From the NCBI GenBank assembly GCA_036522815.1, contig DATDFC010000118.1, forward strand, positions 1,306 to 65,305: DNA of 64,000 nucleotides, given 5' to 3'. This stretch comes from Gemmatimonadales bacterium. Its GTDB lineage: Bacteria > Gemmatimonadota > Gemmatimonadetes > Gemmatimonadales > GWC2-71-9. The first letter of the stretch is position 1. Each line of letters begins with the position of its first letter. A program made the translations under genes and the position numbers. Shown piece by piece: positions 14,636 to 36,199 of the stretch. The notes under the pieces were generated by a model that saw only the letters and a list, made by a program, of their open reading frames with translations, was not told the DNA's origin and did not search any database.

Positions 14636-14736
14636 GCCTAACAAGCGCTTGAAGCTGGCGGCGCTGCTCTTAAAGGAAGCGTTATGTTGCCTGACGTTCG
14701 AGACGTTCGCCGCAGCTTAAGCGCGATCCGTTAGGC
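14636..14736 (+). repeat. attC site 1 (class D, 101 bp)
   Basis: R'' GCCTAAC 14636-14642, R' GTTAGGC 14730-14736, both arms conserved. Confidence 0.9.
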
Positions 14737-14754
14737 CGCCCCCGAGAGCATACG

Positions 14755-15351
14755 ATGCACTCGTTAAAGCTCAATTCCCGGTTCGGTCTTCTTGCTTCCG
14801 TTCTCACCGTCGTGGCCTGCAAAGCTTATCAAATGCCGAGTTCGAGCATGGAGCCCACCGTCTTGGCTGGGGACTACGTCCTCGCCCTGAGCAAGGTGAG
14901 ATCCCCTGCACGAGAGGAAGTCGTCATCTATAACCTCAAGGGACTCCCATATGTGAAACGGGTGCTTGGGTTACCGGGCGACACTTTGTCGATGCGCGAC
15001 GGGGTTCTCGTTGTGAATGGACAGCCAGTCGTGGAGCCCTACGCTTCGCACCGGACCGAGACCGCTCGTGTGGACTCGGCGTTCACGTGGCAACGCCGCT
15101 TTCTAGAGCGCGAACGGGACTCGACGATGTATCATCCAACGCTCACGGCGTGGGGTCCCATTGTGGTTCCTCCTGACAATTATTTCGTATTGGGCGACAA
15201 TCGAGGCGAGAGTGCCGACAGCAGGTATACAGGATTCGTGCGCAGGGCCGAGATCTTCGCGCGCCCTATGTTCATTTACTTCTCGCGTGATCGCCAAAGT
15301 GGCAAGATTAGGTGGGATCGAATTGGAATACGCCTGAGGGATAGCACCTAG
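14755..15351 (+). CDS. lepB: cassette ORF: signal peptidase I (S26 family)
   Basis: SSSMEPTVLAGDYVL (Ser box), YVKRVLGLPGD (Lys box), GDNRGESADSRY; ATG 18 nt after attC1. Confidence 0.8.
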   Translation: MHSLKLNSRFGLLASVLTVVACKAYQMPSSSMEPTVLAGDYVLALSKVRSPAREEVVIYNLKGLPYVKRVLGLPGDTLSMRDGVLVVNGQPVVEPYASHRTETARVDSAFTWQRRFLERERDSTMYHPTLTAWGPIVVPPDNYFVLGDNRGESADSRYTGFVRRAEIFARPMFIYFSRDRQSGKIRWDRIGIRLRDST

Positions 15352-15362
15352 GCGCGGGGGCG

Positions 15363-15499
15363 GCCTAACATGCGCTTGAAGCTGTCGGGCCTGCTCTCAA
15401 AGGAATCGGCCGTTGGCTAGCCTGGCCGTCGCCGCGGGGCGGGCCGGTCCCTTGCGCCCGCGCGCACGCTGCCCGCAGCTTAAGCGCGATTCGTTAGGC
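15363..15499 (+). repeat. attC site 2 (class B, 137 bp)
   Basis: GCCTAAC 15363 ... GTTAGGC ending 15499; core gctgtcgggcctgctctcaaaggaatcggcc. Confidence 0.9.
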
Positions 15500-15523
15500 T
15501 GCCCCGACAAGTCGGAGGACTAC

Positions 15524-15901
15524 GTGCAGAACTCGAAACGCATCGCTGGCCTCCTTGGCCCGACGCTCGTGGCGATGCTCATCTCCGAATTTCCGCTTGT
15601 CCAACCGCACCTTTATGACGCCCAGATCCCACCGGTCGTCTATCTCTCCGGAACCCTGATGTTCGTCGGTGGGCTCGCGATCGTCCGGGCGCACAACCAC
15701 TGGGCACGTGACTGGACCGTCCTGGTAACGCTGTCTGGTTGGTTTGGTCTGGTGCTTGGTCTGTTTCGCATGTTCGCAGCGGGCTTCTACCAAAGGGGCT
15801 CGGCGAGCGCCAGCGCCACGCTGTTCATGGTCTTGGAGGGCATCCTCCTAATCATTGGGCTCATCATGACGTTCAAGGCATACGCCCCCGATCGGGCCTA
15901 G
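15524..15901 (+). CDS. cassette ORF: hypothetical membrane protein
   Basis: GTG 15524, 25 nt after attC2 (track start 15413 lies inside attC); several hydrophobic helices. Confidence 0.5.
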   Translation: MQNSKRIAGLLGPTLVAMLISEFPLVQPHLYDAQIPPVVYLSGTLMFVGGLAIVRAHNHWARDWTVLVTLSGWFGLVLGLFRMFAAGFYQRGSASASATLFMVLEGILLIIGLIMTFKAYAPDRA

Positions 15902-15931
15902 CATGCCTGCTTCGTGACTCGACCGGGGGCA

Positions 15932-16072
15932 GCCTAACCAGCGCTTGAAGGTGGCGGGCGGTGATCGCTTTAAAGGAAGCGGACTGTTGTGCCCCTGGCG
16001 GGGCACGGCCTTCGGCCGCCACCCTTGCGCCAGCCAGCGAGTCGCCCGCAGCTTAAGCGCGATCCGTTAGGC
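15932..16072 (+). repeat. attC site 3 (class A, 141 bp)
   Basis: GCCTAAC 15932 ... GTTAGGC ending 16072; core ggtgatcgctttaaaggaagcgga. Confidence 0.9.
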
Positions 16073-16079
16073 AGCACGC

Positions 16080-16673
16080 GTGATGCGCACCCTATCAGCT
16101 GTGGCCACTCTGACCTGCCTCCTCGCGTGTCGTTCCCGCACCGAACACGTGGCGTCGGCTTTCTCACAGGTTCCGTTCCAGCCAGCGCCTCCATACGACT
16201 CCCTTGCCGATACTAGCCGCTGGCTTACATGGCGCACTCCCGACTTCACACTTCATTACCCCAAACGCGCCTCGGTCCTTCCGGACACGGATCGCTTCTC
16301 CGATCACATTGGCAGTGCGTTGGTGTGGCGGTTCTCGCAGATGCAATGGCTCCGCCTTGCTGTCGCGCGACTCCCCGGGGGTCCCGCATCTCGATTTGTG
16401 GCATTCGTGGACAGCATCCGACGGTCGCGCAACGCATCCCTCAATCCTGACTGGCGCATGGCCCCGGCTTCGGCGCTTCAGGTGAGCCACTACTCTGCGC
16501 TTGAGCTGCGGCCGGATTGTGGCGACTGTGACGCCCACGAGATTTATGTCGCGCTGCCGCAAACGCGCCTCGTCTTCAGCTTCAGTCTTGAGCAAGGGCT
16601 CAAATACACGTACACCCAACAGGAGCGGCTCTACCGCCTTATCCTTACCACGCTTAGTGAGCCGATCCCGTGA
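16080..16673 (+). CDS. cassette ORF: hypothetical lipoprotein (197 aa)
   Basis: GTG 8 nt after attC3; lipobox-like MMRTLSAVATLTCLLAC. Confidence 0.55.
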   Translation: MMRTLSAVATLTCLLACRSRTEHVASAFSQVPFQPAPPYDSLADTSRWLTWRTPDFTLHYPKRASVLPDTDRFSDHIGSALVWRFSQMQWLRLAVARLPGGPASRFVAFVDSIRRSRNASLNPDWRMAPASALQVSHYSALELRPDCGDCDAHEIYVALPQTRLVFSFSLEQGLKYTYTQQERLYRLILTTLSEPIP

Positions 16674-16685
16674 GCGACGCGTGCT

Positions 16686-16787
16686 GCCTAACATGCGCTT
16701 GCAGCTGGCGGCGCCCGCCTGTCAGGGTAGAATTCCATTTGTCATGAACCACTCCAGGCGCTGCAGCTGAAGCGCGATCCGTTAGGC
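16686..16787 (+). repeat. attC site 4 (class D, 102 bp)
   Basis: GCCTAAC 16686 ... GTTAGGC ending 16787; paired arm variant GCGCTTgCAGCTG / CAGCTGAAGCGC. Confidence 0.9.
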
Positions 16788-16801
16788 AGCGGCAACTCAT
16801 A

Positions 16802-17221
16802 ATGCCTCGTCGCCTACCTGGCCTGACGGCGCTGAGTGCCTTCTTCGCAGTCGGCGCAATCATCGCCATGCTCACGAGCATCGCCCTATTGGCTCCTGGG
16901 AGCGCCTTAGGGCCCGTCTGGCGGCTCAACCCGCACGCGCAAGGTGCCTTCCGGGCCATGGGGTCCTGGGCCATCGCGCTCATGCTGGCCGTGGCGGCGG
17001 CATGTGCCCTGTCCGCCGTGGGCCTCTGGCTCCGAGCTCGCTGGGGCCACCGTCTCGCGGTGGCACTCCTCGTCATCAATTTCTTCGGAGATGCGACGAA
17101 CGCGTTCGTGCGGGGCGACCTCCGGACCCTCATCGGCCTGCCGATCGCCGCGGGGCTCATTGTCTATCTGCTGAGCCCCAGGGTGCGGGACCACTTTACG
17201 GCGACCCATGCCGCTGCCTAA
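16802..17221 (+). CDS. cassette ORF: hypothetical membrane protein (139 aa)
   Basis: ATG 15 nt after attC4; about 4 TM-like segments; stop TAA lies inside R'' of attC5. Confidence 0.6.
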   Translation: MPRRLPGLTALSAFFAVGAIIAMLTSIALLAPGSALGPVWRLNPHAQGAFRAMGSWAIALMLAVAAACALSAVGLWLRARWGHRLAVALLVINFFGDATNAFVRGDLRTLIGLPIAAGLIVYLLSPRVRDHFTATHAAA

Positions 17222-17352
17222 CAAGCGCTTGAAGCTGGCGGGCGCTCTTGTGGGAAGAATTGCGTTCCCTCGCTGGCCCGCCTTTTGTCTGCCGTTCCGC
17301 CGCCTTGCGCCCGCGGGCACAGCGCCCGCAGCTTAAGCGCGATCCGTTAGGC
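17216..17352 (+). repeat. attC site 5 (class C, 137 bp)
   Basis: GCCTAAC 17216 ... GTTAGGC ending 17352; core gtgggaagaattgcgttccc. Confidence 0.9.
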
Positions 17353-17373
17353 AACCCCGCAACCCGGTTTCCC

Positions 17374-17946
17374 ATGCTACCTGTTGACCCATCGGTTGGG
17401 CGCGCCCGCTACAACGAAGATGGGTACTGCCTTCGGATCTCGTGGCCGCCCCAGCGTTCCCTGTTCGGGGGGTTGTTCATAACAGCTTGGCTCGGCGGAT
17501 GGTTCTTCGGTGAGAAATCCGCCATCCATGAGCTCACGAAGGGCCCGGCCCAGAATGATCGTGGTTTCTTGACCTTCTGGCTCGTCGCTTGGACGATTGG
17601 TGGCGCAGCTGCAGCCCTTTCTCTGATCTGGATGATGTTCGGGCGGGAAATAGTATCTGTCGGGCCAGACGGGCTTACCCTTCGGCGACAGATCTTCGGC
17701 CTCGGGATTACTCGTACGTACGATCCTCAGCACGTAACCCGCTTGCGGGTCGAACCAAGGCCGACCGATGCATTCGCGCTGCGGACGCGGGGCCTCGGCT
17801 GGGGCATCGGAGATGGCTCAGTGGCTTTCGACTATGGGGCCAAGACAGTCCGATGTGGAGGCGCTCTTGATGAAGCTGAGGCGCGGATCGTCGTCGCGCG
17901 GCTCATTCAGCGCGACCGCCGGTTGTCCACAGAGGGGGCTGCCTAA
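17374..17946 (+). CDS. cassette ORF: hypothetical membrane protein (190 aa)
   Basis: ATG 22 nt after attC5 (track start 17248 is inside attC); two TM-like segments; stop TAA inside R'' of attC6. Confidence 0.55.
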   Translation: MLPVDPSVGRARYNEDGYCLRISWPPQRSLFGGLFITAWLGGWFFGEKSAIHELTKGPAQNDRGFLTFWLVAWTIGGAAAALSLIWMMFGREIVSVGPDGLTLRRQIFGLGITRTYDPQHVTRLRVEPRPTDAFALRTRGLGWGIGDGSVAFDYGAKTVRCGGALDEAEARIVVARLIQRDRRLSTEGAA

Positions 17947-18081
17947 CATGCGCTTGAAGCTGGCGGGCGATGATCGCTTTAAGGGAAGCAGAGTGTTGTG
18001 CGCTGGCGCGCACGAACTATCGTTCAACGACACAGCGCCCTGCGGGCGAGTCGCCCGCAGCTTAAGCGCGATCCGTTAGGC
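17941..18081 (+). repeat. attC site 6 (class A, 141 bp)
   Basis: GCCTAAC 17941 ... GTTAGGC ending 18081. Confidence 0.9.
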
Positions 18082-18088
18082 GGCGCTA

Positions 18089-19165
18089 ATGCGTCAGCTA
18101 GTCGTCTGGGTCGTCATCGTTCTCACGCTTGCAAAATGTTCGGACGGGCCCACTGCGCCGCCGGGGCCATTTCGACTTACCATCCTGACCGCCACCGGCT
18201 CGTCCAGTCCCGTCTACAACGGCATCACATACCAGAGCTACGCATACGACATCAACGCGACCGGCCAAATCGTTGGGAAGGCAGAAACCCCTGAGCCAGG
18301 CGACGCCTTCTATCCCGCGTTGTGGCCGACGGGCGGAGGAGGAGCGGCGATCCGGTTGGAGTCAAACGGGAACGGCTTCGACATGGCCTTTGGCATCAAT
18401 GGACAAGGCCAGGCGGTCGGCCAGGGATCCTGTGGCGGCCTTGGTATGGCGTGCTTCTGGGACGGGCATCAGGTCACGAACCTGGGCTGGCTGGACTACG
18501 CCGTTTATGATGGCCATGGCCAACCACTCGCGATCAACGACAGCGGCGTCGCGGTCGGGTGGGCGGACGCCGCACCGGACGGCTTTGACCACGCCGTCAT
18601 GTGGCGCAATGGCGTCGCAAGCGACCTCGGCACCCTAGGAGGTCTCCAGAGTGAGGCGCTGAACATCAACAATCACGGTCTCATTGTGGGATGGTCCCGC
18701 ATCCGGCGGCCCGATTCTTCACTCGCGTTGGATCGGCATGCCTTTGTCTGGCAGAATGGCTCGATGACGGATCTCGATCCCGGGCAGGACGAGGAAACCA
18801 TCGCGTACGCGATCAATGACAGTGGCGTGATCGCAGGCCGTCTGGGCGGCACGGCAGGCAGAGCAGTCATCTGGCAAAACGGAAAGATGAGTTTCCTGCC
18901 TGGTGCCGAGCCCAGCCAGGCGTTTGGCATCAATAACGGGGGTGAAGTCGTCGGGACGTACATTCCGAGTGGAACGACATTCCATGCGGCTCTGTGGCGG
19001 GATGGCGTGCGCTACGATCTGAACGACGTCGTGGGGGACCCTCGGTTGGGTCTCCATTGGGCGAACGCGATCAACGACGCTGGACAGATCGTCGGTTTCG
19101 GCGTGTGGAAAAGTGACCCGACCCGCGAGGTCGCCTTCTTGCTGACGCCGACTGGTACCCACTGA
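18089..19165 (+). CDS. cassette ORF: secreted HAF-type repeat protein (358 aa)
   Basis: Signal/lipobox VVIVLTLAKC; repeated INDSGVAVGW / INNHGLIVGW / INDSGVIAGR / INNGGEVVGT / INDAGQIVGF. Confidence 0.7.
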   Translation: MRQLVVWVVIVLTLAKCSDGPTAPPGPFRLTILTATGSSSPVYNGITYQSYAYDINATGQIVGKAETPEPGDAFYPALWPTGGGGAAIRLESNGNGFDMAFGINGQGQAVGQGSCGGLGMACFWDGHQVTNLGWLDYAVYDGHGQPLAINDSGVAVGWADAAPDGFDHAVMWRNGVASDLGTLGGLQSEALNINNHGLIVGWSRIRRPDSSLALDRHAFVWQNGSMTDLDPGQDEETIAYAINDSGVIAGRLGGTAGRAVIWQNGKMSFLPGAEPSQAFGINNGGEVVGTYIPSGTTFHAALWRDGVRYDLNDVVGDPRLGLHWANAINDAGQIVGFGVWKSDPTREVAFLLTPTGTH

Positions 19166-19192
19166 AGGGCGCATCCATCACAATTGGGCGCC

Positions 19193-19282
19193 GCCTAACA
19201 CGCGCTTGAAGCTGACGGCGCGCGTAGATTAAGGAATGAATCTTTCTTCAGCGCGCCGCAGCTTAAGCGCATTCCGTTAGGC
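19193..19282 (+). repeat. attC site 7 (class E, 90 bp)
   Basis: GCCTAAC 19193 ... GTTAGGC ending 19282; core gcgcgtagattaaggaatgaatc. Confidence 0.9.
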
Positions 19283-19423
19283 GGCATCCACGTCCCGCTG
19301 ATCGCCGCGCAGCAACATGGGAGCACTGGCACCTGCCCATGTTCCCTAAGCATGCTTAATCAACATGGTGGCGGCGCACGCATCAGATTCGATAGACAAA
19401 CGTATTCACGGAGGGCCCTAATA

Positions 19424-19672
19424 ATGACACGCTGGCTCATTGGGCTCGGCGCTGGTCTGTTCGTGTTGGGGGCGATGGGAATGCGGACGAGGCCAGAGAG
19501 AGGTACTTGGGAATACCTTGTCTGGGATCGCACCGACAAGTCCGGGATCGACACCAAGAAGTTTCCCGTTCAACTGGACTCTCTCGGGTCGCAAGGTTGG
19601 GAGCTCGTGCAAATAGCCATCTGGCCGATGCAGGGCGGCGGAATCGTGATTCTGAAACGGAGAGCCCAATAG
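19424..19672 (+). CDS. cassette ORF: small TM + DUF4177-like protein
   Basis: ATG 19424 preferred over 19352; MTRWLIGLGAGLFVLGAMG helix, then WEYLVW...LDSLGSQGWELVQI. Confidence 0.5.
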   Translation: MTRWLIGLGAGLFVLGAMGMRTRPERGTWEYLVWDRTDKSGIDTKKFPVQLDSLGSQGWELVQIAIWPMQGGGIVILKRRAQ

Positions 19673-19727
19673 CAACCACGGCAGGGCCCTTCTCGCCATT
19701 CATTCAATTGCGGCCGCCACGGATGCC

Positions 19728-19868
19728 GCCTAACAAGCGCTTGAAGCTGGCGGGCGCTCACAAGTAGGGAGGAATTGCGTTCCCTCGCCGGCCACCCTTC
19801 TTGTCTGCGGCTCCACCGCCTTGCGCCTGCGGGCCTTGCGCCCGCAGCTTAAGCGTGATCCGTTAGGC
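19728..19868 (+). repeat. attC site 8 (class C, 141 bp)
   Basis: GCCTAAC 19728 ... GTTAGGC ending 19868. Confidence 0.9.
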
Positions 19869-19887
19869 GGCGACCCGGCTTCGACCC

Positions 19888-20124: not shown

Positions 20125-20130
20125 GCCGCT

Positions 20131-20232
20131 GCCTAACAAGCGCTTGAAGCTGGCAGCGCCTGCTGTCAAAGGAAGCGTTATGTTTGTGATCATTCGAGTT
20201 GCGCGCCGCAGCTTAAGCGCGGTCCGTTAGGC
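20131..20232 (+). repeat. attC site 9 (class D, 102 bp)
   Basis: GCCTAAC 20131 ... GTTAGGC ending 20232. Confidence 0.9.
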
Positions 20233-20401
20233 AGCGCGGACGTGGACCTTGCCATAAACACGACCTTCTACCATCTCGTTGGGCAGAGGTATGCATCGTT
20301 GCGCGTCCGCGACACCGCGACCGGCACGACCGGGATTGCCTCTTTGCACAAACCTCTCATAGGTTGAAACGATAGTTTGCTCCCCCGTGCCAGGAGGATT
20401 C

Positions 20402-20990: not shown

Positions 20991-21132
20991 GCCTAACAAG
21001 CGCTTGAAGCTGGCGGGCGGTGATCGCCTTAAGGGAAGCGGAGTGTTTGCGCCCTGGCGGACCGCGGACTGTCGTCCAACGACCTTGCGCCAGCGGGCGA
21101 GTCGCCCGCAGCTTAAGCGCGATCCGTTAGGC
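20991..21132 (+). repeat. attC site 10 (class A, 142 bp)
   Basis: GCCTAAC 20991 ... GTTAGGC ending 21132. Confidence 0.9.
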
Positions 21133-21549: not shown

Positions 21550-21690
21550 GCCTAACATGCGCTTGCAGCTGGCGGGCGCGATCGTTTTAATGGAGACTGT
21601 TGGGTCGTGCCCTGGCGGGCACGAGGTTTCGTCCACTGTTGACTGCGCAGGCGCGCCAGTCGCCCGCAGCTGAAGCGCGATCCGTTAGGC
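21550..21690 (+). repeat. attC site 11 (class A variant, 141 bp)
   Basis: GCCTAAC 21550 ... GTTAGGC ending 21690; paired arm variant GCGCTTgCAGCTG / CAGCTGAAGCGC. Confidence 0.9.
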
Positions 21691-22506: not shown

Positions 22507-23076
22507 GTGAACGCTCCGCAGAAGTCTCAGGGCTACGCGCTATTTTGGAAAGGGAAATATTGGGGTTCCCTCACCACGGGACAGCTCCGCCCTGACGGAA
22601 CGCATGACTTGTACCTGGGCGTCGCCGGGCATGACACTCACGAACACGTTTGGGTCAAGGTCACGCCCGAAGGTCTGGGCGCAATTGGTTCTCGGCTCAA
22701 GGACCGGGGCAAGCACATCGGCGGTGGCTCGAGTCCGTCCTTCACGACCCAGGCAGTTGCTCGGGTGAACCTTCGAGCGGATCAAGCGGGGAATGTCGTC
22801 ACCGCCCTCGCTGACGTCTTTTCAGGCAGCGTAATCTCCGCCGCTCCGCTGGCCACCACTCGCGACAGCAGCAAGCGTCAGCCGGTCAGAATCAATCTCA
22901 CGGTGCCAGACGCGGCTCGCAGCGTCGACTGTGAGTTTGCAGTAGTTCAGCGTGCCTCAGTTGGCGAGTCTTCCAACTCAACATCTGGCCCGGTCTTCCT
23001 ACCGTTCAGTGATCCAAGTCCACTCGGAATGACCGTTCAAGTGAGGAAATGGAGTACCAGTGAGCCCGCGGCCTAA
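22507..23076 (+). CDS. cassette ORF: hypothetical protein (189 aa), second gene of the same cassette
   Basis: GTG 60 nt after the previous stop, no attC between; stop TAA inside R'' of attC12; no motif recognised. Confidence 0.5.
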   Translation: MNAPQKSQGYALFWKGKYWGSLTTGQLRPDGTHDLYLGVAGHDTHEHVWVKVTPEGLGAIGSRLKDRGKHIGGGSSPSFTTQAVARVNLRADQAGNVVTALADVFSGSVISAAPLATTRDSSKRQPVRINLTVPDAARSVDCEFAVVQRASVGESSNSTSGPVFLPFSDPSPLGMTVQVRKWSTSEPAA

Positions 23077-23212
23077 CAAGCGCTTGAAGCTGCCGGGCGG
23101 TGATCGCCTAAAGGGAAGCGGAGTGTTGTAGCGCTGGCGCGCACGAACTATCGTTCAACGGCACGGCGCGCGGCGGGCAAGTCGCCCGCAGCTTAAGCGC
23201 GATCCGTTAGGC
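23071..23212 (+). repeat. attC site 12 (class A, 142 bp)
   Basis: GCCTAAC 23071 ... GTTAGGC ending 23212. Confidence 0.9.
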
Positions 23213-23227: not shown

Positions 23228-23767
23228 ATGAAGACCATAGAAGACATTCGTAACGAACTCGCAGCTATCGCCGCCGAGCTGCGTGCCGAGGACGCAGGTG
23301 CTGCAAATGACCTCGATCAGCTCAATAACACGTTCTATACCACTACCACCGAATACCTGGTCGAGATGATGGGTCTGATTCAACGCTTGCAGGGGCGGGG
23401 AGGTTCTCCGGCGCGGTTCGGCGGGTTAGGACGGTTCGGTGGTGCAGGGGGCGAGTCCCCGCTGGGCGTCAGGATTGGCCTCGAGCGATCACCGGTGGGC
23501 GCCCGGCGTGCCTCCAGCAGTGCAGGGATCGGCCTTGGGCGTTGCGCTCCGGTTTCCGACCGGGTGATGGTCAGCGCCCTCTCATGGCCCTGCCGCAGGG
23601 TGAGTCCCGTGGCGGTGAGCGTGGGCGAGCATCGGCCTAACAAGCGCTTGAAGCTGCCGGGCGCTCAAGTGGGAAGAATTGCGTTCACCCGCCTGCAAGC
23701 TTCATCGGCGGTTCACCTGCCTTGCGCCGGCGACCATTGCGCCCGCAGCTTAAGCGCTGTCCGTTAG
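23228..23767 (+). CDS. hypothetical small protein whose ORF has no stop before attC13 and reads through it
   Basis: First ~55 codons look protein-like (MKTIEDIRNELAAIAAELRAED...EYLVEMMGLI); the rest is Gly/Arg-rich and ends in attC-encoded PNKRLKLPG; true 3' end uncertain. Confidence 0.3.
   Translation: MKTIEDIRNELAAIAAELRAEDAGAANDLDQLNNTFYTTTTEYLVEMMGLIQRLQGRGGSPARFGGLGRFGGAGGESPLGVRIGLERSPVGARRASSSAGIGLGRCAPVSDRVMVSALSWPCRRVSPVAVSVGEHRPNKRLKLPGAQVGRIAFTRLQASSAVHLPCAGDHCARSLSAVR
23379..23431 (+). repeat. possible collapsed attC relic
   Basis: ttcaacgcttgcaggggcgg...ggcgggttagga resembles gcctaacgagcgcttgcagctggcgg-gttaggc of site 41329-41361; weak. Confidence 0.3.
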
Positions 23768-23769
23768 GC
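23635..23769 (+). repeat. attC site 13 (class C, 135 bp)
   Basis: GCCTAAC 23635 ... GTTAGGC ending 23769. Confidence 0.9.
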
Positions 23770-24309: not shown

Positions 24310-24450
24310 GCCTAACATGCGCTTGAAGCTGGCGGGCGCTGATGGCTTTAATGGAAGCGGAGTGTTTGCGCCCTGGCGGCCGCAGACGTTCGCCCACTAC
24401 TCTTGCGCCGGCGAGCGGGTCGCCCGCAGCTTAAGCGCGATCCGTTAGGC
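24310..24450 (+). repeat. attC site 14 (class A, 141 bp)
   Basis: GCCTAAC 24310 ... GTTAGGC ending 24450. Confidence 0.9.
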
Positions 24451-24955: not shown

Positions 24956-25093
24956 GCCTAACATACGCTTGAAGGTGTCGGGCCTGCTCTTAAAGGAATC
25001 GGCCGTTGCCTCGCCGGGCTCGCCTCCGCGCGGGCGGCCGGTCCCTTGCGCCCGCGAGCACGCCGCCCGCAGCTTAAGCGCGATCCGTTAGGC
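24956..25093 (+). repeat. attC site 15 (class B, 138 bp)
   Basis: GCCTAAC 24956 ... GTTAGGC ending 25093. Confidence 0.9.
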
Positions 25094-26194: not shown

Positions 26195-26293
26195 GCGTAA
26201 CAAGCGGCTGGAGCTGACGCCGCCCGTCGTATGTAGAATTGCTTTTGTGAACAACACAGCACGGCGGCGCAGCTCAGCCGCTTCTCGTTAGAC
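26195..26293 (+). repeat. attC site 16 (class D variant, 99 bp; boxes GCGTAAC / GTTAGAC)
   Basis: Arms AAGCGGCTgGAGCTG ... CAGCTCAGCCGCTT differ from consensus by reciprocal (compensatory) changes. Confidence 0.8.
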
Positions 26294-26910: not shown

Positions 26911-27000
26911 GTCTAACACGCGCTTGAAGCTGGCGGCGCGCGTAGATTAAGGAATGAATCGTTTTTTAGCGCGCGGCAGCTTAAGCGCGATCCGTTAGGC
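26911..27000 (+). repeat. attC site 17 (class E, 90 bp; R'' GTCTAAC)
   Basis: GTCTAAC 26911 ... GTTAGGC ending 27000; core gcgcgtagattaaggaatgaatc as in site 7. Confidence 0.9.
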
Positions 27001-27030
27001 GCACGCCAAACACCTGGTAGGTCATGTCTC

Positions 27031-27387
27031 GTGCCAGCCAGCTCGAGCTTCCGAACCTTTGTCATCGACCAGCTGAGTCGCGTGATCCCACGCGTCCGCG
27101 CCCGGAGCATGTTCGGCGGTGTCGGCATCTACGCGAGCGATCGCTTTTTCGCCCTGATCGCCGATGACACGCTCTACTTGAAGGTGGATGAGTCCAATCG
27201 CCCGGACTTCGAGACGCGCGGCATGGGCCCATTCCGACCGTACGGTGAGCATGGGGAGGTCATGCAGTATTACGAGGTGCCCGCCGAGCTCCTCGACGAC
27301 CCGGAGGCACTGCGCCCGTGGGCTGAGAAGGCGATCGCTGCGGCAGGGCGGAAGAAGGTCAAGCGTTCGGGTCGCGGCGGCGCCTAA
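27031..27387 (+). CDS. cassette ORF: TfoX N-terminal domain protein (118 aa)
   Basis: FRTFVIDQLS...ARSMFGGVGIYASDRFFALIADDTLYLKVDE...; stop TAA inside R'' of attC18. Confidence 0.75.
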   Translation: MPASSSFRTFVIDQLSRVIPRVRARSMFGGVGIYASDRFFALIADDTLYLKVDESNRPDFETRGMGPFRPYGEHGEVMQYYEVPAELLDDPEALRPWAEKAIAAAGRKKVKRSGRGGA

Positions 27388-27518
27388 CATGCGCTTGAAG
27401 CTGCCGGCCGCTCACAAGTGGGCAGAATTGCGTTCTCTCGCCCGTCAGCCTCGTCGGCGGCTCGATCCCCTTGCGCCGGCGCTCATTGCGCCCGCAGCCT
27501 AAGCGCGATCCGTTAGGC
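27382..27518 (+). repeat. attC site 18 (class C, 137 bp)
   Basis: GCCTAAC 27382 ... GTTAGGC ending 27518. Confidence 0.9.
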
Positions 27519-28395: not shown

Positions 28396-28537
28396 GCCTA
28401 ACAAGCGCTTGAAGCTGACGGGCGGTGACCGCTTTAAGGGAAGCGGAGTGTTGTGCCCCTAGCGGGGCACGGACTGCGTCCGCCACCCTTGCGCCAGCGG
28501 GCGGGTCGCCCGCAGCTTAAGCTGCGATCCGTTAGGC
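28396..28537 (+). repeat. attC site 19 (class A, 142 bp)
   Basis: GCCTAAC 28396 ... GTTAGGC ending 28537. Confidence 0.9.
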
Positions 28538-29522: not shown

Positions 29523-29660
29523 GCCTAACATGCGCTTGAGGCTGTCGGGCCTGTTCTTAAAGGAATCGGCCCTTGCCTCGCCTGGCGCGCCTCTGCGGCG
29601 CAGGCTGGTGCCTTGCGCCCGCCCGCACGCCGCCCGCAGCTTAAGCGCGATCCGTTAGGC
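29523..29660 (+). repeat. attC site 20 (class B, 138 bp)
   Basis: GCCTAAC 29523 ... GTTAGGC ending 29660. Confidence 0.9.
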
Positions 29661-29897: not shown

Positions 29898-29999
29898 GCC
29901 TACCAAGCGCTTGAAGCTGGCGGGCCCGGCTCTTAGGGGAAGAATTATGTTTGTGAACCTCAAGCCTGCGCGCCGCAGCTGAAGCGCGATCCGTTAGGC
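29898..29999 (+). repeat. attC site 21 (class D, 102 bp; R'' GCCTACC)
   Basis: GCCTACC 29898 ... GTTAGGC ending 29999. Confidence 0.85.
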
Positions 30000-30497: not shown

Positions 30498-30974
30498 ATG
30501 ACTCGGTCGCTCACCAGCGTGCAGTACCGCGAGGCTGCCGCCGCAGACGTACCAGCCATGGTCCGTAGTCGCCTAGCGGATCCCGCGGCGGGCGTGGCCG
30601 ACCCCCGGATGGCGGCATACCTCGATGGCCAACACCACCCGCAGCAAGCTCTACCACGCCGCGTCAGCTACGTTGCAGAAGCGGGGGACGCCGTGGTCGG
30701 CTACATCGCTGGACACCTCAGCCATCGGTATGAATGCGAGGGCGAGCTGCAATACCTCTTTGTCGCTCCCCAGTATCGGAGAACGGGAATAGCCTCGGAG
30801 CTGTTCCGCCTGCTGGCGCGTTGGTTCAGCCACCAGGGCGCACGGCGAATCTGCGTGAACGTTGAACCCGATAACGCCGGCGCCCGTGCTTTCTACCGGC
30901 GTCACGGCGCCATTACGCTACACCCGTTCTGGCTTGTGTGGAGCGACATTCGCGCTACCATCGGTGCAGCCTAA
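30498..30974 (+). CDS. GNAT family N-acetyltransferase (158 aa)
   Basis: ATG 30498; acetyl-CoA motif LFVAPQYRRTGIASELFRLL...FYRRHG; no attC separates it from the previous ORF; stop TAA inside R'' of attC22. Confidence 0.8.
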   Translation: MTRSLTSVQYREAAAADVPAMVRSRLADPAAGVADPRMAAYLDGQHHPQQALPRRVSYVAEAGDAVVGYIAGHLSHRYECEGELQYLFVAPQYRRTGIASELFRLLARWFSHQGARRICVNVEPDNAGARAFYRRHGAITLHPFWLVWSDIRATIGAA

Positions 30975-31103
30975 CAAGCGCTTGAGCCTGGCGGGCGCTC
31001 GGGTGGGAAGAATTGCGTTCCCCCGCCGGCGGGCTCGTTCAGCGGCTCCACCTCCTTGCGACCTCGGGCGTTGCGCCCGCAGCTGAGGCGTGATCCGTTA
31101 GGC
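30969..31103 (+). repeat. attC site 22 (class C, 135 bp)
   Basis: GCCTAAC 30969 ... GTTAGGC ending 31103. Confidence 0.9.
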
Positions 31104-31127
31104 GGCCACCTACACTTACCGAGCGGC

Positions 31128-32393
31128 ATGCGAATACTGAGGCTTGCAGTTCTCCTCTTCGGCGCATACGCCTGCACAAGGCCCTCGCCCCCCGGGCCAC
31201 CCGTACGCCTCGCCGGCGACATCTCCGACACGATCATCGTCAATAGCCGCTGGCCGAAGCGCCTTCCCGTGCACGCATTCGACGCGAAGGGCCGGGCCAT
31301 CGTGGGGGCGCCCATCCGCTTCGACCGGCTGGACGGCGCCGAGGTGCCAATCACGAGCGCGGGAGCGGTGCAGTGCACGAAATCCGGAGACTTCAGCGTG
31401 CAGGCCGTCCTGGATAGCCTCACGACCCGCGTGTTCGTGCGCTGCCGGCTCGTCGATATCGTGCAGGTCCAGGGGCCGATCCAGTTCGTGCTCGGCGACT
31501 CGGAGCTTGGCCGGCCACGTGCCGTTCCGCTCGGAGTGTACAGTTCGGACGGGCGCCCCGTCTCGCTCTACACTGCAAGCATCTTCTTGGCGGACAGTGA
31601 CGTTGCTACGCTCCGCGGGACCACCATCTACCCTCTATCACCTGGCCCAACAGTCGTGGGCGTGCACATCGGTGACCGGGATGGGGGCACCGGAGTGCAC
31701 ATCTACCAGCGCGTGGACGGACTGGCCGCGCTCGATACACTCCTGCGTGTGCACCCAGGGCGGCGAGCCTTCGCCGTGCCACTCCGCATGGAAAGCGGCA
31801 CCCAATATCGGCAGGGCCTTCCACCAGGCGGTTGGATGCTCACGGTGCTCCCCCGCGAGCAAAGCGGTCCGAATCCAATCCGCATGTTCGTGGACGGCGC
31901 AGCCTGTGATTCAAACCTCCTCAATGATCCCGGACGCCTCGGCTGCGGAGCAGGGTCGCGCGCCAGCATAATTGTCTACCGTCCGTTCTCGAGGCGTCCC
32001 TCGAAACCCGCGACCGCGTATCTCCTCGTCCGAGGAATGGGAAGCGGAGATCCGAGGCGCTTCGTCCCGCGAGTCCGAGCGACACCAGGAGACCTGATTT
32101 GCGTCAAGAAGTTGCTGCGAGCACGCGGTTACGATCTGCAGCTGAAATCCCCCGACGACCAGTTGCTCCAAATGGGCCGTCGCGGGCAACTGGGCACCGA
32201 CGCTCGGCGCGAGTGGATCGAGGTTCGATTCGTGCCGGATGAGTCTGAACCCACCCTCCGGGGCAGAGCCTGGGCGCTAGATTCCTACCCGACAGAGCGG
32301 TCTCTCGAGCGCAATCCTGTCGTTGTGCAGCCTGCGGAGGTGACGCTTACGGATGCGCGCGAGGTGTTGCAACGGTGTGGCCGCGATCGATGA
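31128..32393 (+). CDS. cassette ORF: lipoprotein with Ig-like (Big_2-like) segments (421 aa)
   Basis: Lipobox MRILRLAVLLFGAYAC; ADSDVATLRGTTIYPLSPGPTVVGVHIGD resembles Big_2 repeats. Confidence 0.5.
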   Translation: MRILRLAVLLFGAYACTRPSPPGPPVRLAGDISDTIIVNSRWPKRLPVHAFDAKGRAIVGAPIRFDRLDGAEVPITSAGAVQCTKSGDFSVQAVLDSLTTRVFVRCRLVDIVQVQGPIQFVLGDSELGRPRAVPLGVYSSDGRPVSLYTASIFLADSDVATLRGTTIYPLSPGPTVVGVHIGDRDGGTGVHIYQRVDGLAALDTLLRVHPGRRAFAVPLRMESGTQYRQGLPPGGWMLTVLPREQSGPNPIRMFVDGAACDSNLLNDPGRLGCGAGSRASIIVYRPFSRRPSKPATAYLLVRGMGSGDPRRFVPRVRATPGDLICVKKLLRARGYDLQLKSPDDQLLQMGRRGQLGTDARREWIEVRFVPDESEPTLRGRAWALDSYPTERSLERNPVVVQPAEVTLTDAREVLQRCGRDR

Positions 32394-32428
32394 CAGGTGC
32401 GCCTCACGCGCTAACAATGACGGGTGGC

Positions 32429-32442
32429 CGCCTAACATGGCG
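32429..32442 (+). repeat. attC relic (R'' box plus a few nt)
   Basis: gcctaacatggcgg; rest of the site absent. Confidence 0.4.
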
Positions 32443-32522
32443 GACAGGCAGGCACCACTCACTCTTTGTGACGCGGAGAGCCTCCCCTAGGTAAACACAT
32501 ATGGTCGATACATCACGCTAAG

Positions 32523-33020
32523 GTGCCCGATTCCGGAGCCCCCATGTCGCGTATTTCCCCAACACTCCCGTCGCGCGCCGCCCCGATACTCCTCCTAGCG
32601 AGCACCACCCTTACCTGCGGTCAGCCCCTAGCCCCCAGTGCCCTCGCCGGTTCGTACGTACTGGAGAGCGTCGCGCTCGAGCCGATCCCGACGGTGCTCT
32701 TCAGCAGTTCGGATGTCACCATTCGGGTGCTCGCTGATACCCTGCGGTTCCATGGCACGGGCACCGGTACGCAAACGGGGCTCCAAGTGGTCCAGTCTCA
32801 GAGTTCGCCAAGCCTCACGGACACCGTGGCTGTGAACAACCAGTTTGCCTTTCAGGTCGTAGATAGTCGATTTGAAATCACCTACGCGTGTCCGATCACC
32901 GCTAACTGTGTGCCAGGCCCGCACCTCGTCGGCCAGCCTCTCGCCGATGGCCTACGAGTGGACCACGCCCTGGGCGACCGAGTTCCCCTCATTTATGGGC
33001 GCCTCGGAAGCCGGCCATGA
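32523..33020 (+). CDS. hypothetical lipoprotein-like protein (165 aa)
   Basis: GTG 32523 or ATG 32544; LLLASTTLTCGQP lipobox-like. Confidence 0.45.
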   Translation: MPDSGAPMSRISPTLPSRAAPILLLASTTLTCGQPLAPSALAGSYVLESVALEPIPTVLFSSSDVTIRVLADTLRFHGTGTGTQTGLQVVQSQSSPSLTDTVAVNNQFAFQVVDSRFEITYACPITANCVPGPHLVGQPLADGLRVDHALGDRVPLIYGRLGSRP

Positions 33021-33037
33021 AGGGTCCGGAGGCGCCT

Positions 33038-33137
33038 GCCTAACAAGCGCTTGAAGCTGGCGGGCGCTATCGCTTTAAGGGAAACGGAGTGTTTGCCGCC
33101 CTGCCGGGCGCGGAGGTACGTCCGACCGCCTTGCGCC
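33038..33137 (+). repeat. attC site 23, 3'-truncated (class A left part, right arm and R' missing)
   Basis: GCCTAAC 33038, consensus continues to ccttgcgcc (33137), then unrelated sequence. Confidence 0.7.
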
Positions 33138-33337
33138 TCATGTTGGCGCCAGCTGTCCATCGCTACGTGCTTGCACAGGATGCCCAGGACGGTGCTGGGC
33201 ACGTCCAACGGAGGGCGGCTCTTTAGTAGTAGCTTTCGTGGAGCGGCCGCCACGAACTAGGATCATCTCTGCCAGACTCGCCACCAGACGCGAGCGCCAT
33301 GACTAGGCGGCATGACACGAGTGGAGTTGGACACGCG

Positions 33338-33733
33338 ATGACCATAGCCACCACTAAGCCCCGTGTGACATCATTGGCCCCCCAGTTCCTCGTGGACGAT
33401 CTTCGGCGCTCGATCGTATTCTACGAGAAGCTAGGTTTCGCATTCGGCGAACCCTGGGATGGGTTTTACGTGATCGGCCACTTAGACGGTCTGGAGCTCC
33501 ACCTGAAGGAAGCGCCGAAGTACGAGCCGGAGCGCCGTTTTCGGCGGGAGCACGAGCATCTGGACGCTGCGGCGGGCGTGGACGGCATTGAGGCGTTCTA
33601 CGCTCAATGCGTGGCCAATGGTGCAACGATTACCAAGCCGCTCACGCCCACCCCATGGGGCACAAAGGACTTCTACGTAGAGGACCCGGACGGCTACATC
33701 CTCTGCTTTGGTGGTCGCTCCGCCGGAGGGTGA
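33338..33733 (+). CDS. VOC (glyoxalase/bleomycin-resistance) family protein
   Basis: FLVDDLRRSIVFYEKLGFAF...LELHLKE...KDFYVEDPDGYILCFG; ATG 33338 preferred over 33299. Confidence 0.75.
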   Translation: MTIATTKPRVTSLAPQFLVDDLRRSIVFYEKLGFAFGEPWDGFYVIGHLDGLELHLKEAPKYEPERRFRREHEHLDAAAGVDGIEAFYAQCVANGATITKPLTPTPWGTKDFYVEDPDGYILCFGGRSAGG

Positions 33734-33769
33734 CGCGCAGGCTGTTTCTGTTGGGGAGGTTGTCATGCC

Positions 33770-33871
33770 GCCTAACATGCGCTTGAAGGTGGCGGCGCCC
33801 CTCGTCTGTGGTAAACTTGCGTTTGTGATCATTCCAGTCAGGCGCCGCAGCTTAAGCGCGATCCGTTAGGC
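33770..33871 (+). repeat. attC site 24 (class D, 102 bp)
   Basis: GCCTAAC 33770 ... GTTAGGC ending 33871. Confidence 0.9.
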
Positions 33872-33921
33872 GCCGGCCAGTCGCGCGCTGCTCGAGTCTC
33901 ACGCACACGCCTACGGGCAGG

Positions 33922-34353
33922 ATGTGGCAAATGTCGAGGCTCAACTGGAGTCGCGCTCTGCTGGGTGGTGTCTTAGCCGGGGTGCTTTGGGGCATCCTGT
34001 ATGCGCCTGTGCACCCGCTCGTCGAGGTGCATACCACCCTTGGTCGACCCGTACTTCCAATCACGCCGTTTCGGGGCGCAGCGCCTCTTCTACGTGTCCT
34101 TGTCGTCTTTACAGGGTTCGTGCAGGGGATCGCAACGGTGTGCCTCTACGCGGCCATTCGCCCGCGCTTCGGTGCAGGCCCGAGTACCGCGGCCATCGCT
34201 GCCTTGAGTGTCTGGTTTCTCACCAGTTGGATGCATCTGGTGTGGGCCGTGTTCACGGCTGTCCCAATCGCCGAGGCGCTGGTGCCCCTTGGGGTCAACC
34301 TGCCGCTGGTGGTGCTCGCGGGGCTGGCGGGAGCATGGCTTTATAGAGAATGA
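33922..34353 (+). CDS. cassette ORF: hypothetical membrane protein (143 aa)
   Basis: Four TM-like segments; ATG 51 nt after attC24. Confidence 0.55.
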   Translation: MWQMSRLNWSRALLGGVLAGVLWGILYAPVHPLVEVHTTLGRPVLPITPFRGAAPLLRVLVVFTGFVQGIATVCLYAAIRPRFGAGPSTAAIAALSVWFLTSWMHLVWAVFTAVPIAEALVPLGVNLPLVVLAGLAGAWLYRE

Positions 34354-34390
34354 CCCGAGCCTGTGGTCGCAGCCGTCGGCTTCGGCCGGC

Positions 34391-34531
34391 GCCTAACAAG
34401 CGCTTGACGCTGACGGGCCTATCGCTTTAAGGGAAGCGGAGCGGTTGTAGCCCTGGCACGCACGCACTATGGTTCAATAGCAGCGCCTCCTGCGGGCATG
34501 TCGCCCGCAGCGTAAGCGCGATCCGTTAGGC
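34391..34531 (+). repeat. attC site 25 (class A, 141 bp)
   Basis: GCCTAAC 34391 ... GTTAGGC ending 34531. Confidence 0.9.
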
Positions 34532-34624
34532 AGCGACACGTTCTACCGAAGGGGAGCCCGCCTGCCGCCGAAAGTACCGCCTCCTAGGCTATTCCTGCTT
34601 CTCGCGCGCGAGGCACCGCGTGCG

Positions 34625-35428
34625 GTGGTTTTACGCCGCGGTCCATCAAAGTGGGTCGAGGTCATTGCCTGGGACACGCACCGTGACACGTTCGACCACG
34701 GGGCATGGTTTCACGGACGGATCTATCAACGTCGTTCGGATCTCTCTCCCGATGGAACGAAGCTGGTCTACTTCGCCAGCAAATTCACTTCCAAGACCGT
34801 CAACGACCCTGAATACACGTACGCATGGACTGCAGTGAGCAAGGTACCCTACCTAACAGCCCTGGCCCTTTGGCCAAAGGGCGACTGCTGGTGGGGTGGG
34901 GGCTTGTTCCAAGACAACTACACCGTGTTCCTCAATCATCGACCGTCAGAGGCTACTCCTCATCCGCGCCACCTACCGCAACGCCTCCGTGTGATTCCCA
35001 ATCCAGACGCAGCTGGAGAAGACGATCCACTGTACTCGCAGCGCCTCACCCGCGATGGATGGCAGATACGGCAAGAGTGGCAATGGGAACATCTTGGCTG
35101 GGACGGCTATCGTACGACGACCCCCGAACTCCGTACCCGAGCCCATCCTAATGGACGCCTTAGGCTCGTCCTCGAAAGACGACTGGACGGCCTTCGTTAT
35201 CGCGAGCGTTTCTCCATCGAGGCACCGGTTGCCCGTCGCCCGATCGACCTGGAAGGCGCCGAATCGGTCGACTGGGACCAGGCCGGCCGACTCGTTTTTC
35301 TTCGCAGGGGTATCGTGTGGGCGTCGACAGTACAAGGGTCCGCGATTGGAGAACCGAACCCCCTAATCGACCTCACGGCAGATCAGCCTACGCCGCGCCA
35401 GACACCCCGCTGGGCCGAGGCTTGGTAG
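34625..35428 (+). CDS. cassette ORF: hypothetical protein (267 aa)
   Basis: GTG start; Trp-rich, no signal peptide, no motif recognised. Confidence 0.5.
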   Translation: MVLRRGPSKWVEVIAWDTHRDTFDHGAWFHGRIYQRRSDLSPDGTKLVYFASKFTSKTVNDPEYTYAWTAVSKVPYLTALALWPKGDCWWGGGLFQDNYTVFLNHRPSEATPHPRHLPQRLRVIPNPDAAGEDDPLYSQRLTRDGWQIRQEWQWEHLGWDGYRTTTPELRTRAHPNGRLRLVLERRLDGLRYRERFSIEAPVARRPIDLEGAESVDWDQAGRLVFLRRGIVWASTVQGSAIGEPNPLIDLTADQPTPRQTPRWAEAW

Positions 35429-35438
35429 TCATGTCGCT

Positions 35439-35515
35439 GCCTAACAAGCTTGAAGCTGGCGGGACTCTTGCGCCGGCGGGCTCGCCGCCCGCAGCTTAAC
35501 CGGGATCCGTTAGGC
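35439..35515 (+). repeat. attC site 26 (class S, 77 bp)
   Basis: GCCTAAC 35439 ... GTTAGGC ending 35515; central part deleted. Confidence 0.85.
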
Positions 35516-35526
35516 CGCACGCTCCT

Positions 35527-36039
35527 ATGCTGACAAGGTTTACTGTCCGTCTCGTCGGCCTCGCCTCGCTCGTCCTCGCGAGCTGTCGCCGCGCTGCGCC
35601 TCCAGTTCAAAGCGCCCACGATCCTTCGGCCATCTCACCTCCGTCTGCGACGCAGCGTGGGGCAGCGGCCGTTTGCGACAGCGTCGCGATCCTTTGGCGG
35701 GCCACTCGGCGTGCGACCGTTCGCTCGGCCGATACGACCGCGTCTGTACTGTCTGATTCCCAACCACAGCATGGATGCGCTGTCGTCGTCGCTGCGTCGC
35801 TGGGTCTCGATAGCGCGCAGTCGACGCACCTGTACTGGTCCTACCACGGGCGGCCTGGCTGGACGGATCTCTCGACGTTCGATGCCGATGGGCCAGACGG
35901 GTATAGTCGCGTCCGCGAGCGGGGTGACACTCGTTGCCAGGTCGACTTCACCCAAGATGGGGGCGACGATAGCGACTCGACATATGTGCCGAGTCCTGCG
36001 GTAGGTGAGGTGACCTTTTGCTGGCGACGCGTCCAGTAG
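35527..36039 (+). CDS. cassette ORF: hypothetical lipoprotein (170 aa)
   Basis: Lipobox LVGLASLVLASC; ATG 12 nt after attC26. Confidence 0.55.
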   Translation: MLTRFTVRLVGLASLVLASCRRAAPPVQSAHDPSAISPPSATQRGAAAVCDSVAILWRATRRATVRSADTTASVLSDSQPQHGCAVVVAASLGLDSAQSTHLYWSYHGRPGWTDLSTFDADGPDGYSRVRERGDTRCQVDFTQDGGDDSDSTYVPSPAVGEVTFCWRRVQ

Positions 36040-36058
36040 CTGTGAGGAGGGACGTACG

Positions 36059-36199
36059 GCCTGACATGTGCTTGCAGCTGACGGGCGGTGATCGCCTTAA
36101 GGGAAGCGGAGCGTTGTGCGCTGGCGCGCACGAACTAACGTTGAACTGCGGGGCGCCCTGCGGCCATGCTGCCAGCAGCATAAGCGCGACCGGTTAGGC
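36059..36199 (+). repeat. attC site 27 (class A, degenerate, 141 bp; R'' GCCTGAC)
   Basis: GCCTGAC 36059 ... GTTAGGC ending 36199; several arm substitutions. Confidence 0.75.

Follow-up and report, generated by a model that had tools for sequence, protein, structure and literature searches.

Bulged attC hairpins with a C at the first extrahelical position in an integron cassette array of a Gemmatimonadales bacterium

The cassette array and the anatomy of its hairpins

A stretch of 64,000 nucleotides from a Gemmatimonadales bacterium (assembly GCA_036522815.1, contig DATDFC010000118.1, positions 1,306 to 65,305; the whole stretch is referred to here as the window) contains a long array of co-oriented, hairpin-forming repeats that a sequence-only reading had described as the attC sites of an integron. 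Hamming and geometry scans of the window located 26 complete attC units of 77 to 142 nt, all on the + strand, within positions 14636-36199. The left-arm pattern GCCTAACNNGCGCTTGNAGCTG and the right-arm pattern CAGCTNAAGCGCNNNNCGTTAGGC each have 27 matches in the window at two or fewer mismatches, on the + strand only, against 0 expected from dinucleotide shuffles. The longest open reading frame (ORF) is on the + strand in 23 of the 26 cassettes and spans from just past R' to just before R'', and the Pfam matches of the cassettes include S26 signal peptidase, Zn-dependent dehydrogenase (Zn-ADH), and DUF3466. The GC content of the window is about 67% outside the array and about 61 to 65% inside it.

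The consensus of the 26 window sites on the top strand reads GCCTAAC-AW-GCGCTT-[G]-AAGCTG-[N]-CGGGCG ... CGCCCG-CAGCTT-AAGCGC-GATCC-GTTAGGC, where the bracketed bases are unpaired. The corresponding fold of the bottom (-) strand is 5'-GCCTAAC (R')-GGATC-GCGCTT-AAGCTG-CGGGCG, a variable terminal structure, and CGCCCG-[N]-CAGCTT-[C]-AAGCGC-WT-GTTAGGC (R'')-3'. The pairings GCCTAAC/GTTAGGC, GCGCTT/AAGCGC (stem A), and AAGCTG/CAGCTT (stem B), which had been proposed from the sequence, are real when the arms of the 26 sites are compared, and the unpaired left-arm G between GCGCTT and AAGCTG is present. A further proposed pairing, GCGG/CCGC, does not hold together with AAGCTG/CAGCTT, as one C is counted twice: the right arm CCGCAGCTT has 9 nt and the left arm AAGCTGGCGG has 10 nt, so that there must be a second unpaired base, at position 23. 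This base lies directly 3' of AAGCTG on the top strand and is followed by a GC stem of 5 to 8 bp and the variable terminal structure. When counting starts at the outer end of R'', the two unpaired bases thus occupy positions 16 and 23, on the R''-L'' arm and with a 6-bp stem between them, which is the canonical geometry of attC extrahelical bases. In the window, base 16 of the top strand is G in 25 of 26 sites, the exception being the indel-damaged site 25, and base 23 is G in 15, A in 5, T in 3, and C in 3. The asymmetry of the spacers that had been noted, 2 nt versus 5 nt, stands, except that the 2-nt side is AW and not AA alone (AA 13, AT 10, AC 2, CA 1); the 5-nt spacer is GATCC in 20 of 26 sites. 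Read on the bottom strand, the central spacer is GGATC (5 nt) next to R' and WT (2 nt) next to R''; the R''-L'' path to base 16 has its canonical length.

The same sites are widely distributed in related genomes. An exact scan with the 18-mer AAGCGCGATCCGTTAGGC, using one genome per species, recovered at least 117 loci, and nearly all of those among the matches listed are soil metagenome-assembled genomes (MAGs) of Gemmatimonadota/Gemmatimonadales; family counts given here refer to the sites in the window plus the related loci among these matches. A scan by geometry only (AAC/GTT, 2/5 spacer, 6 bp, bulge, 6 bp, bulge, 5 bp) found 333 sites with the 2/5 spacer and, on the top strand, the 16/23 bulges in the 5' arm. 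The same scan gave 0 sites for each of four other layouts, in which the bulges were moved to the opposite arm or left out, or the spacers were set to 5/5 or 5/2. Top-strand base 16 is G in 331 of the 333 family sites and base 23 is G in 157, A in 102, C in 55, and T in 19, corresponding on the bottom strand to C in 331/333 at base 16 and to C157/T102/G55/A19 at base 23. The boxes are GCCTAAC in 285 and GTTAGGC in 293 of the 333 sites and agree with RYYYAAC/GTTRRRY, including the variants GTCTAAC and GTTAGAC. The lengths of the family sites cluster near 90, 100, 137, and 141 nt.

The terminal cores of the sites represent a small number of conserved modules, with length classes near 90, 101, 137, and 141 nt, examples of which occupy positions 15960-16040, 17970-18050, and 21020-21100. 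One core module contains TTAAGGGAAGCGGAGTGTTGTGC and folds as branched sub-hairpins, and the modules are conserved between genomes beyond what a purely "variable" loop would need. The attC family was also seen on short contigs of other bins, including related loci L003 (a "Ca. Nitrosopolaris" MAG), L064 (a Mycobacterium MAG), and L065, as well as L027/L032 (Acidobacteria MAGs) and L061/L072 (Deltaproteobacteria/Polyangiaceae MAGs). The cassette on L003 is 94% identical to window positions 27001-27381. These contigs represent either mis-binned mobile DNA or true spread across phyla. A diverged site with the same geometry and fully compensated stems (GCAATT/AATTGC) is located at 6902-7012 on the - strand of L006, a 1.9-Mb contig of Acidobacteriota. 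Its unpaired base is G on the top strand and C on the bottom strand, as in the window family, and the C type of attC may therefore not be confined to the sequence family of Gemmatimonadota.

Folding and covariation of the arms

Arms were collected independently by similarity, which left the set unselected for pairing, and gave 406 sites with 263 distinct arm pairs. Among these 263 pairs, changes on both sides of a pair still allowed pairing in 49 of 50 cases in stem A and 34 of 37 in stem B (83/87 together), and position A14 occurs as T-A, C-G, A-T, and G-C pairs. Alignment A1, which contains no gaps and comprises 147 distinct arm pairs of the window and the related loci, was compared with shuffled alignments. 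Paired cells made up 95.4% of A1 versus 90.0 ± 0.3% after shuffling, 158 cells were changed on both sides versus 50.8 ± 4.6, and the covariation score was 0.144 versus 0.053 ± 0.003; none of these values was reached in 500 shuffles, and controls with slid arms gave a maximum covariation score of 0.035. In A1, 8 of the 17 L-stem pairs covary. The compensatory substitutions that had been quoted from single sites are therefore real and belong to a wider pattern, and the structure of the hairpin is under selection. The accompanying claim that selection acts on structure rather than sequence is correct in that the structure covaries and overstated in that the arms are about 90% identical across MAGs, so that sequence is conserved alongside structure. 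Changes in the R boxes are one-sided only, and no covariation was found there.

Folding of both strands with DNA parameters predicts the hairpin in nearly all of the 26 sites. The bottom strands of 14 sites have z scores of -1.8 to -6.2 relative to dinucleotide shuffles, and in these the minimum free energy (MFE) structure forms the R stem and both 6-bp stems as expected, together with the bulges and an asymmetric internal loop. Without constraints, the position 16 bulge appears in the MFE structure of 19 of 26 window sites, or of 20 if site 16, where the bulge can fall on either of two adjacent Cs, is counted, and the second bulge appears in 17 of 26. The sites that do not adopt the canonical MFE fold, which start at 27382, 29523, 29898, 30969, 35439, and 36059, are those that carry uncompensated mismatches or indels.

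The site numbers and coordinates of the sequence-only reading agree with those obtained here, with site 16 at 26195-26293 and sites 4 and 11 starting at 16686 and 21550, and the variants that it quoted are correct. Its statement that variants preserve pairing applies to sites 4 (16686-16787, 102 nt) and 11 (21550-21690, 141 nt), both with compensated CAGCTG/CAGCTG, to site 16 (99 nt), which has three compensated pairs (GCGGCT/AGCCGC and GAGCTG/CAGCTC) along with mismatched R boxes (GCGTAAC/GTTAGAC), and to site 24 (34391-34531, 141 nt), which adds compensated ACGCTG/CAGCGT. It does not apply to a number of others. Site 3 (15932-16072, 141 nt) and site 23 (33770-33871, 102 nt) have a G.G mismatch in stem B (AAGGTG/CAGCTT in site 3), site 15 (24956-25093, 138 nt) has the same mismatch and an A.C in stem A, and site 18 (27382-27518, 137 nt) has an A.C mismatch in stem B. 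Site 21 (29898-29999, 102 nt) combines R'' = GCCTACC with an A.G mismatch in stem B, and site 22 (30969-31103, 135 nt) has multiple mismatches and a noncanonical MFE structure. The right arm of site 19 (28396-28537, 142 nt) has a 1-nt insertion (AAGCTGC). Site 25 (35439-35515, 77 nt) is degenerate, having lost 2 nt of the left arm and most of the core, and site 26 (36059-36199, 141 nt) is heavily substituted and without a canonical fold. In site 20 (29523-29660, 138 nt), stem B contains a G.T wobble.

A single kind of change in stem B, C to G without compensation, underlies the G.G mismatch of the sites starting at 15932, 24956, and 33770, where AAGGTG faces CAGCTT. The reciprocal CACCTT occurs in relatives, where it sits opposite AAGCTG and is never paired with AAGGTG.

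The remaining sites are site 1 (14636-14736, 101 nt), which has consensus arms, and sites 2 (15363-15499, 137 nt), 5 (17216-17352, 137 nt), 6 (17941-18081, 141 nt), 7 (19193-19282, 90 nt), 8 (19728-19868, 141 nt), 9 (20131-20232, 102 nt), 10 (20991-21132, 142 nt), 12 (23071-23212, 142 nt), 13 (23635-23769, 135 nt), 14 (24310-24450, 141 nt), and 17 (26911-27000, 90 nt). Site 7 forms the cleanest hairpin, with a bottom-strand z of -6.2, and site 17 shares 91% identity with it.

Integrase, strand choice, and decay of the array

Six related loci (L015, L020, L069, L083, L111, and L112) have an integron integrase gene upstream of, and co-directional with, attC sites of this family. In these six loci, an attI-like GTTAGRC junction that is not preceded by an L' arm is located 110 to 250 nt past the intI stop codon, and the first cassette comes next. 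The full-length IntI of L020 aligns to residues 6 to 318 of VchIntIA (2A3V) with an E value of 1.5e-85, including the IntI-specific insertion. At the positions in contact with the first extrahelical base, the L020 protein has K, R, K, Y, and W aligned with Q145, W157, K209, Y210, and W219, which is the IntI1 pattern, and in the distal-base pocket its P, H, and H match P232, H240, and H241 (residue lists from PMC3053210). Among the other integrases, the intI genes of L015 and L111 look frameshifted, the distal-base hairpin (P232, H240, and H241 in VchIntIA) is shortened in L069 and L111, and HH is changed to YH in L083, L111, and L112. These pocket changes might be linked to the nonconserved base 23.

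The consensus boxes, the single + strand ORF per unit, and the IntI with an attI-like junction in the six related loci bear out the identification of the repeats as attC sites. Very probably, they are the attC sites of a chromosomal integron cassette array with bulged hairpins and with the - strand as the bottom strand, represented in the window by a cluster of attC sites without a nearby integrase gene (CALIN). Judging from these sequence comparisons, the CALIN appears to belong to a functional integron family that is widespread in soil Gemmatimonadota MAGs. It is highly improbable that the repeats are instead repetitive extragenic palindromes or bacterial interspersed mosaic elements (REP/BIME-like), miniature inverted-repeat transposable elements (MITEs), or hairpins that act as terminators or stabilizers at the RNA level. 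Covariation cannot tell DNA from RNA hairpins, all of the sites are intergenic and co-oriented with genes, and a scan of the window against Rfam, which has no attC family, gave 0 hits and thus no match to any RNA family. However, the boxes, the exact 16/23 geometry, the one-ORF units, the shuffling of cassettes, and the adjacency of IntI and attI in six loci are specific to integrons, and G.U wobble is not favored on the transcribed strand. Any RNA side effect of the attC hairpins would be secondary.

The assignment of the - strand as the bottom strand, made in the sequence-only reading from geometry, is backed by four independent lines: the arm that carries the bulges, the G after AAC, the side of the ORF and of intI-attI, and the linkage of cassettes to their sites. 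The - strand carries its unpaired bases on the 3' arm and 5'-AAC on the arm facing it, an arrangement reported to determine that the bottom strand is recognized (PMC5027507, PMC2727003). The base 3' of AAC is G on the - strand in more than 90% of the 147 pairs (A1 column 55, C on the top strand) and A or C on the + strand, and a G at this place (G122) is typical of most attCs (PMC2727003). Both the orientation of the ORFs and the position of intI-attI in the relatives make the + strand the top strand. Linkage was assessed with 294 cassettes located between two full sites, which provided 18 homologous pairs, two of which were syntenic and were excluded. The downstream attC core was closer than the upstream core in 15 of the 16 remaining pairs (sign test, p ~5e-4); in four pairs the downstream core was at least 88% identical while the upstream core was unrelated, and the reverse was seen in none. 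Linkage to the downstream core indicates a crossover in R' and hence cleavage of the bottom strand. An upstream attC that travels with its ORF, which would make the + strand recombinogenic, had been hinted at by isolated pairs and was rejected by the systematic comparison of 18 pairs.

We infer that recombination takes place at these sites and that it uses the - strand. The cognate IntI, whose gene would lie elsewhere in the genome or have been lost, would bind the folded bottom strand, cleave R' between A and C (5'-GCCTAA↓C), and exchange one strand. The bulges at 16 and 23, with their 6-bp spacing on the R''-L'' arm, would present the geometry by which integron integrases select the bottom strand. 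Cleavage of R' at this point would define the cassette as TTAGGC-ORF-attC-G.

Several results weigh against this reading. Pfam searches of 20 flanking ORFs and a six-frame scan for tyrosine-recombinase motifs detected no integrase and no attI in the 64-kb window, with no tyrosine recombinase up to about 14.6 kb upstream of the array and about 15 kb past the last arm remnant, and current activity is therefore unproven. About one-quarter of the window sites have uncompensated mismatches or indels. In the window the folds of the two strands are of equal stability (-33.2 versus -33.1 kcal/mol, a difference of 0.12), and wobble (G.T) pairs are symmetric between the strands, 27 versus 28, and thus uninformative on strand, so that neither thermodynamics nor substitution patterns choose a strand. 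Finally, the downstream attC is of another length class in 4 to 5 of the 16 homologous pairs, and the linkage of ORF and attC is not absolute.

The strand results bear on the idea that the sites are attCs whose strand choice is relaxed or reversed, with the + strand or both strands being recombined. This idea, which we regard as improbable, arises from the weakness of the bottom-strand biases and from the purine (G) bulge on the + strand. It would fit the equal stability of the strands in the window, a family-wide advantage of the bottom strand of only 0.54 kcal/mol, which supports the strand assignment weakly when mobile attCs have a bottom strand that is 2.12 kcal/mol more stable (PMC5027507), the symmetric wobble pairs, a slightly positive GC skew of the top strand, and the homologous ORFs that are flanked by unrelated attC cores on both sides. 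In contrast, the + strand has its unpaired bases and 5'-AAC on one arm, which disfavors integrase binding (PMC5027507, PMC2727003), and the G after AAC belongs to the - strand. Sharing of the downstream core in 15 of 16 pairs, with no case of upstream-only sharing, also disagrees with relaxed strand choice, as does the first junction after intI, which is a bare GTTAGRC as a crossover in R' predicts.

ORFs that are 87 to 95% identical between genomes are in some cases followed by downstream attCs of another length class with an unrelated core. Such uncoupled cases include window positions 27031-27387 and 33922-34353 and loci L003, L031, L033, L049, L012/L028, L024/L082, L028/L055, and L101/L105. 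The uncoupling of ORF and core is possibly due to exchange within the conserved 30-nt arms or to rare top-strand events.

The array abuts housekeeping genes on its left flank, encoding PNPase (8002-10107), an M16 peptidase, alanine dehydrogenase (AlaDH; 11459-12571), and dUTPase (13160-13612). The leftmost cassette (14117-14529, + strand) consists of a DUF3224 ORF (14117-14515) followed only by the L'-R' remnant AGCGCGATCCGTTAC (14515-14529). Three related loci (L034, L089, and L008) have the DUF3224 gene as a cassette flanked by attC sites, and the copy in the window is truncated at both ends, lacking an upstream boundary and most of its attC. The long "cassette" at 31104-33769 contains decayed sites on the + strand between 32430 and 33150, namely, a lone R'' box at 32430 and, from 33038, a left arm and core without a right arm. 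The array runs past 36199, with eroded sites on the + strand as far as 48372. This continuation (38970-48372) includes left arms only at 38970, 39374, 39870, 40321, and 42486, a degenerate full site at 41329-41459, a collapsed site, GCCTAACAAGCGCCGTTAGGC, at 42971-42991, a short site of 62 nt at 43670-43731, and right arms only at 44732, 46767, and 48349. From 48400 to 61800, genes on the + strand share 72 to 87% nucleotide identity with cassettes of related arrays and have no attC except for a right-arm remnant at 54671-54694; this segment is probably a fossil part of the array. Damage to the sites rises from left to right from about 35 kb, which suggests that the array is older or less maintained farther from its former attI end.

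These features raise the question of whether the array is a dead relic, its hairpins conserved by recent common descent and its compensatory changes older than the loss of the integrase. We consider this a possible but doubtful account. The window without intI, the left end truncated within a cassette, the progressive erosion of attC from 35 kb with attC-less cassette homologues at 48 to 62 kb, and the damage to 6 or 7 of the 26 sites are what a relic would show. However, 19 or 20 of the 26 sites still fold canonically, and the same cassettes are present at 87 to 95% identity in other MAGs and in other array contexts, which implies recent mobility in the lineage. In addition, half of the known CALINs lie in replicons that encode IntI elsewhere (PMC4889954).

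Comparison with known attC sites and integrons

The first (L''-box) bulge on the - strand is C and not G, as the sequence-only reading pointed out, in 25 of 26 window sites and 331 of 333 family sites. The contrast that it drew with classical sites, where G and T bulges are described, is right for this first base; an equivalent of the T bulge exists, however, at base 23, where the identity of the base is variable. The bottom-strand layout is therefore N-N6-C, compared with the classical T-N6-G, and the typical base identities are not matched. Over hundreds of attCs, the first extrahelical base has been described as "almost exclusively" G and the distal T as conserved (PMC2727003, PMC5027507, PMC7439510). 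Since G is nearly universal in the literature, a family with 99% C is unusual.

Published mutagenesis indicates how such a base might behave. In the Vibrio cholerae repeat (VCR), the G16C change lowered attI × attC recombination 2.7-fold and raised attC × attC deletion 1.2-fold (PMC2727003), and IntI1, IntI2*179E, IntI3, and SonIntIA excised T-N6-C and A-N6-C substrates at least as well as those with G (PMC3053210). A natural C at the L''-proximal unpaired base is known from attCdfrA1, of the class 2 integron, and from the blaVIM-2 attC (PMC3053210). A C at base 16 is therefore rare and not unprecedented, and going by these experiments (PMC2727003, PMC3053210), it would be nearly neutral. The contact residues of the L020 integrase also resemble those of IntI1. 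Nothing indicates an altered mode of recognition in the family, and as the extrahelical bases' identity was dispensable in experiments, it is taken here as a typical and not a defining feature of attC.

What is new here is the lineage-fixed C at the first extrahelical position; the kind of site and the mechanism are already known, and the working model of the integron is unchanged. The family is a natural, lineage-wide counterexample to "almost exclusively G" and supports the experimental view that the position, not the identity, of the unpaired bases drives recognition. It also documents a large attC family in many soil Gemmatimonadota MAGs, whose cassettes are exchanged between genomes at 87 to 95% identity. 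No literature description of a Gemmatimonadota attC family was found, the phylum being only listed among integron carriers, and the published set of 11 taxon attC models includes none for Gemmatimonadota (PMC8352920); the arm consensus could be used for a taxon-specific attC model. It is conceivable, though unlikely, that Gemmatimonadota-type integrons form a distinct specificity class, in which C16, a free base 23, the 5×2 spacer, and weak strand bias are co-adapted with co-directional integrases, some of which have YH in place of HH or a shorter beta-4,5 hairpin at the distal-base pocket. Such a system would be partly orthogonal to class 1, with looser control of strand and crossover, and would explain ORFs with unrelated attC cores.

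The sites share with the classical attCs, attCaadA7 of class 1 mobile integrons and VCR of the Vibrio cholerae superintegron, the RYYYAAC/GTTRRRY boxes with conserved AAC/GTT, the imperfect-palindrome hairpin, and the unpaired bases on the R''-L'' arm, which are at 16 and 23 in attCaadA7, with a 6-bp stem, or at 24 in place of 23 in VCR (PMC5027507, PMC2727003). They also share the G after AAC on the bottom strand, a variable terminal structure (total site length here, 77 to 142 nt), and an ORF upstream of its own attC. They differ in base 16, which is C in 99% here and G in classical sites (PMC2727003), and in base 23, which is variable here (on the bottom strand, C 47%, T 31%, G 17%, and A 6%) and a conserved T there. 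The central spacer is 5×2 here, compared with about 5 to 6 nt on each side, and 6 bp rather than 3 to 4 bp precede the first bulge. The folding advantage of the bottom strand is -0.5 here versus -2.1 kcal/mol, and the bottom strand is not enriched in purines. The attCdfrA1 and blaVIM-2 sites resemble the family in having C as the L''-proximal unpaired base. They are, however, isolated exceptions in mobile cassettes, and the spacing in attCdfrA1 is A-N7-8-C, whereas here C with N6 is fixed lineage-wide in hundreds of sites.

Co-directional placement of intI and its cassettes is the less common arrangement in integrons and has been described as "inverted" for Treponema. The six related loci are arranged like these Treponema integrons, with intI on the same strand as, and upstream of, the cassettes and an attI-like junction past the intI stop codon. 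The co-directional intI is known from these six relatives only, and the window itself has no intI. In this respect the window corresponds to a CALIN, defined as two or more attC sites without intI nearby, with elements clustered by IntegronFinder within 4 kb (PMC4889954), as its co-oriented attC sites number at least 26 and no intI was found in it. It differs from the typical CALIN in being far larger, given that 83% of CALINs comprise less than 6 sites each (PMC4889954), and in its clear gradient of attC erosion.

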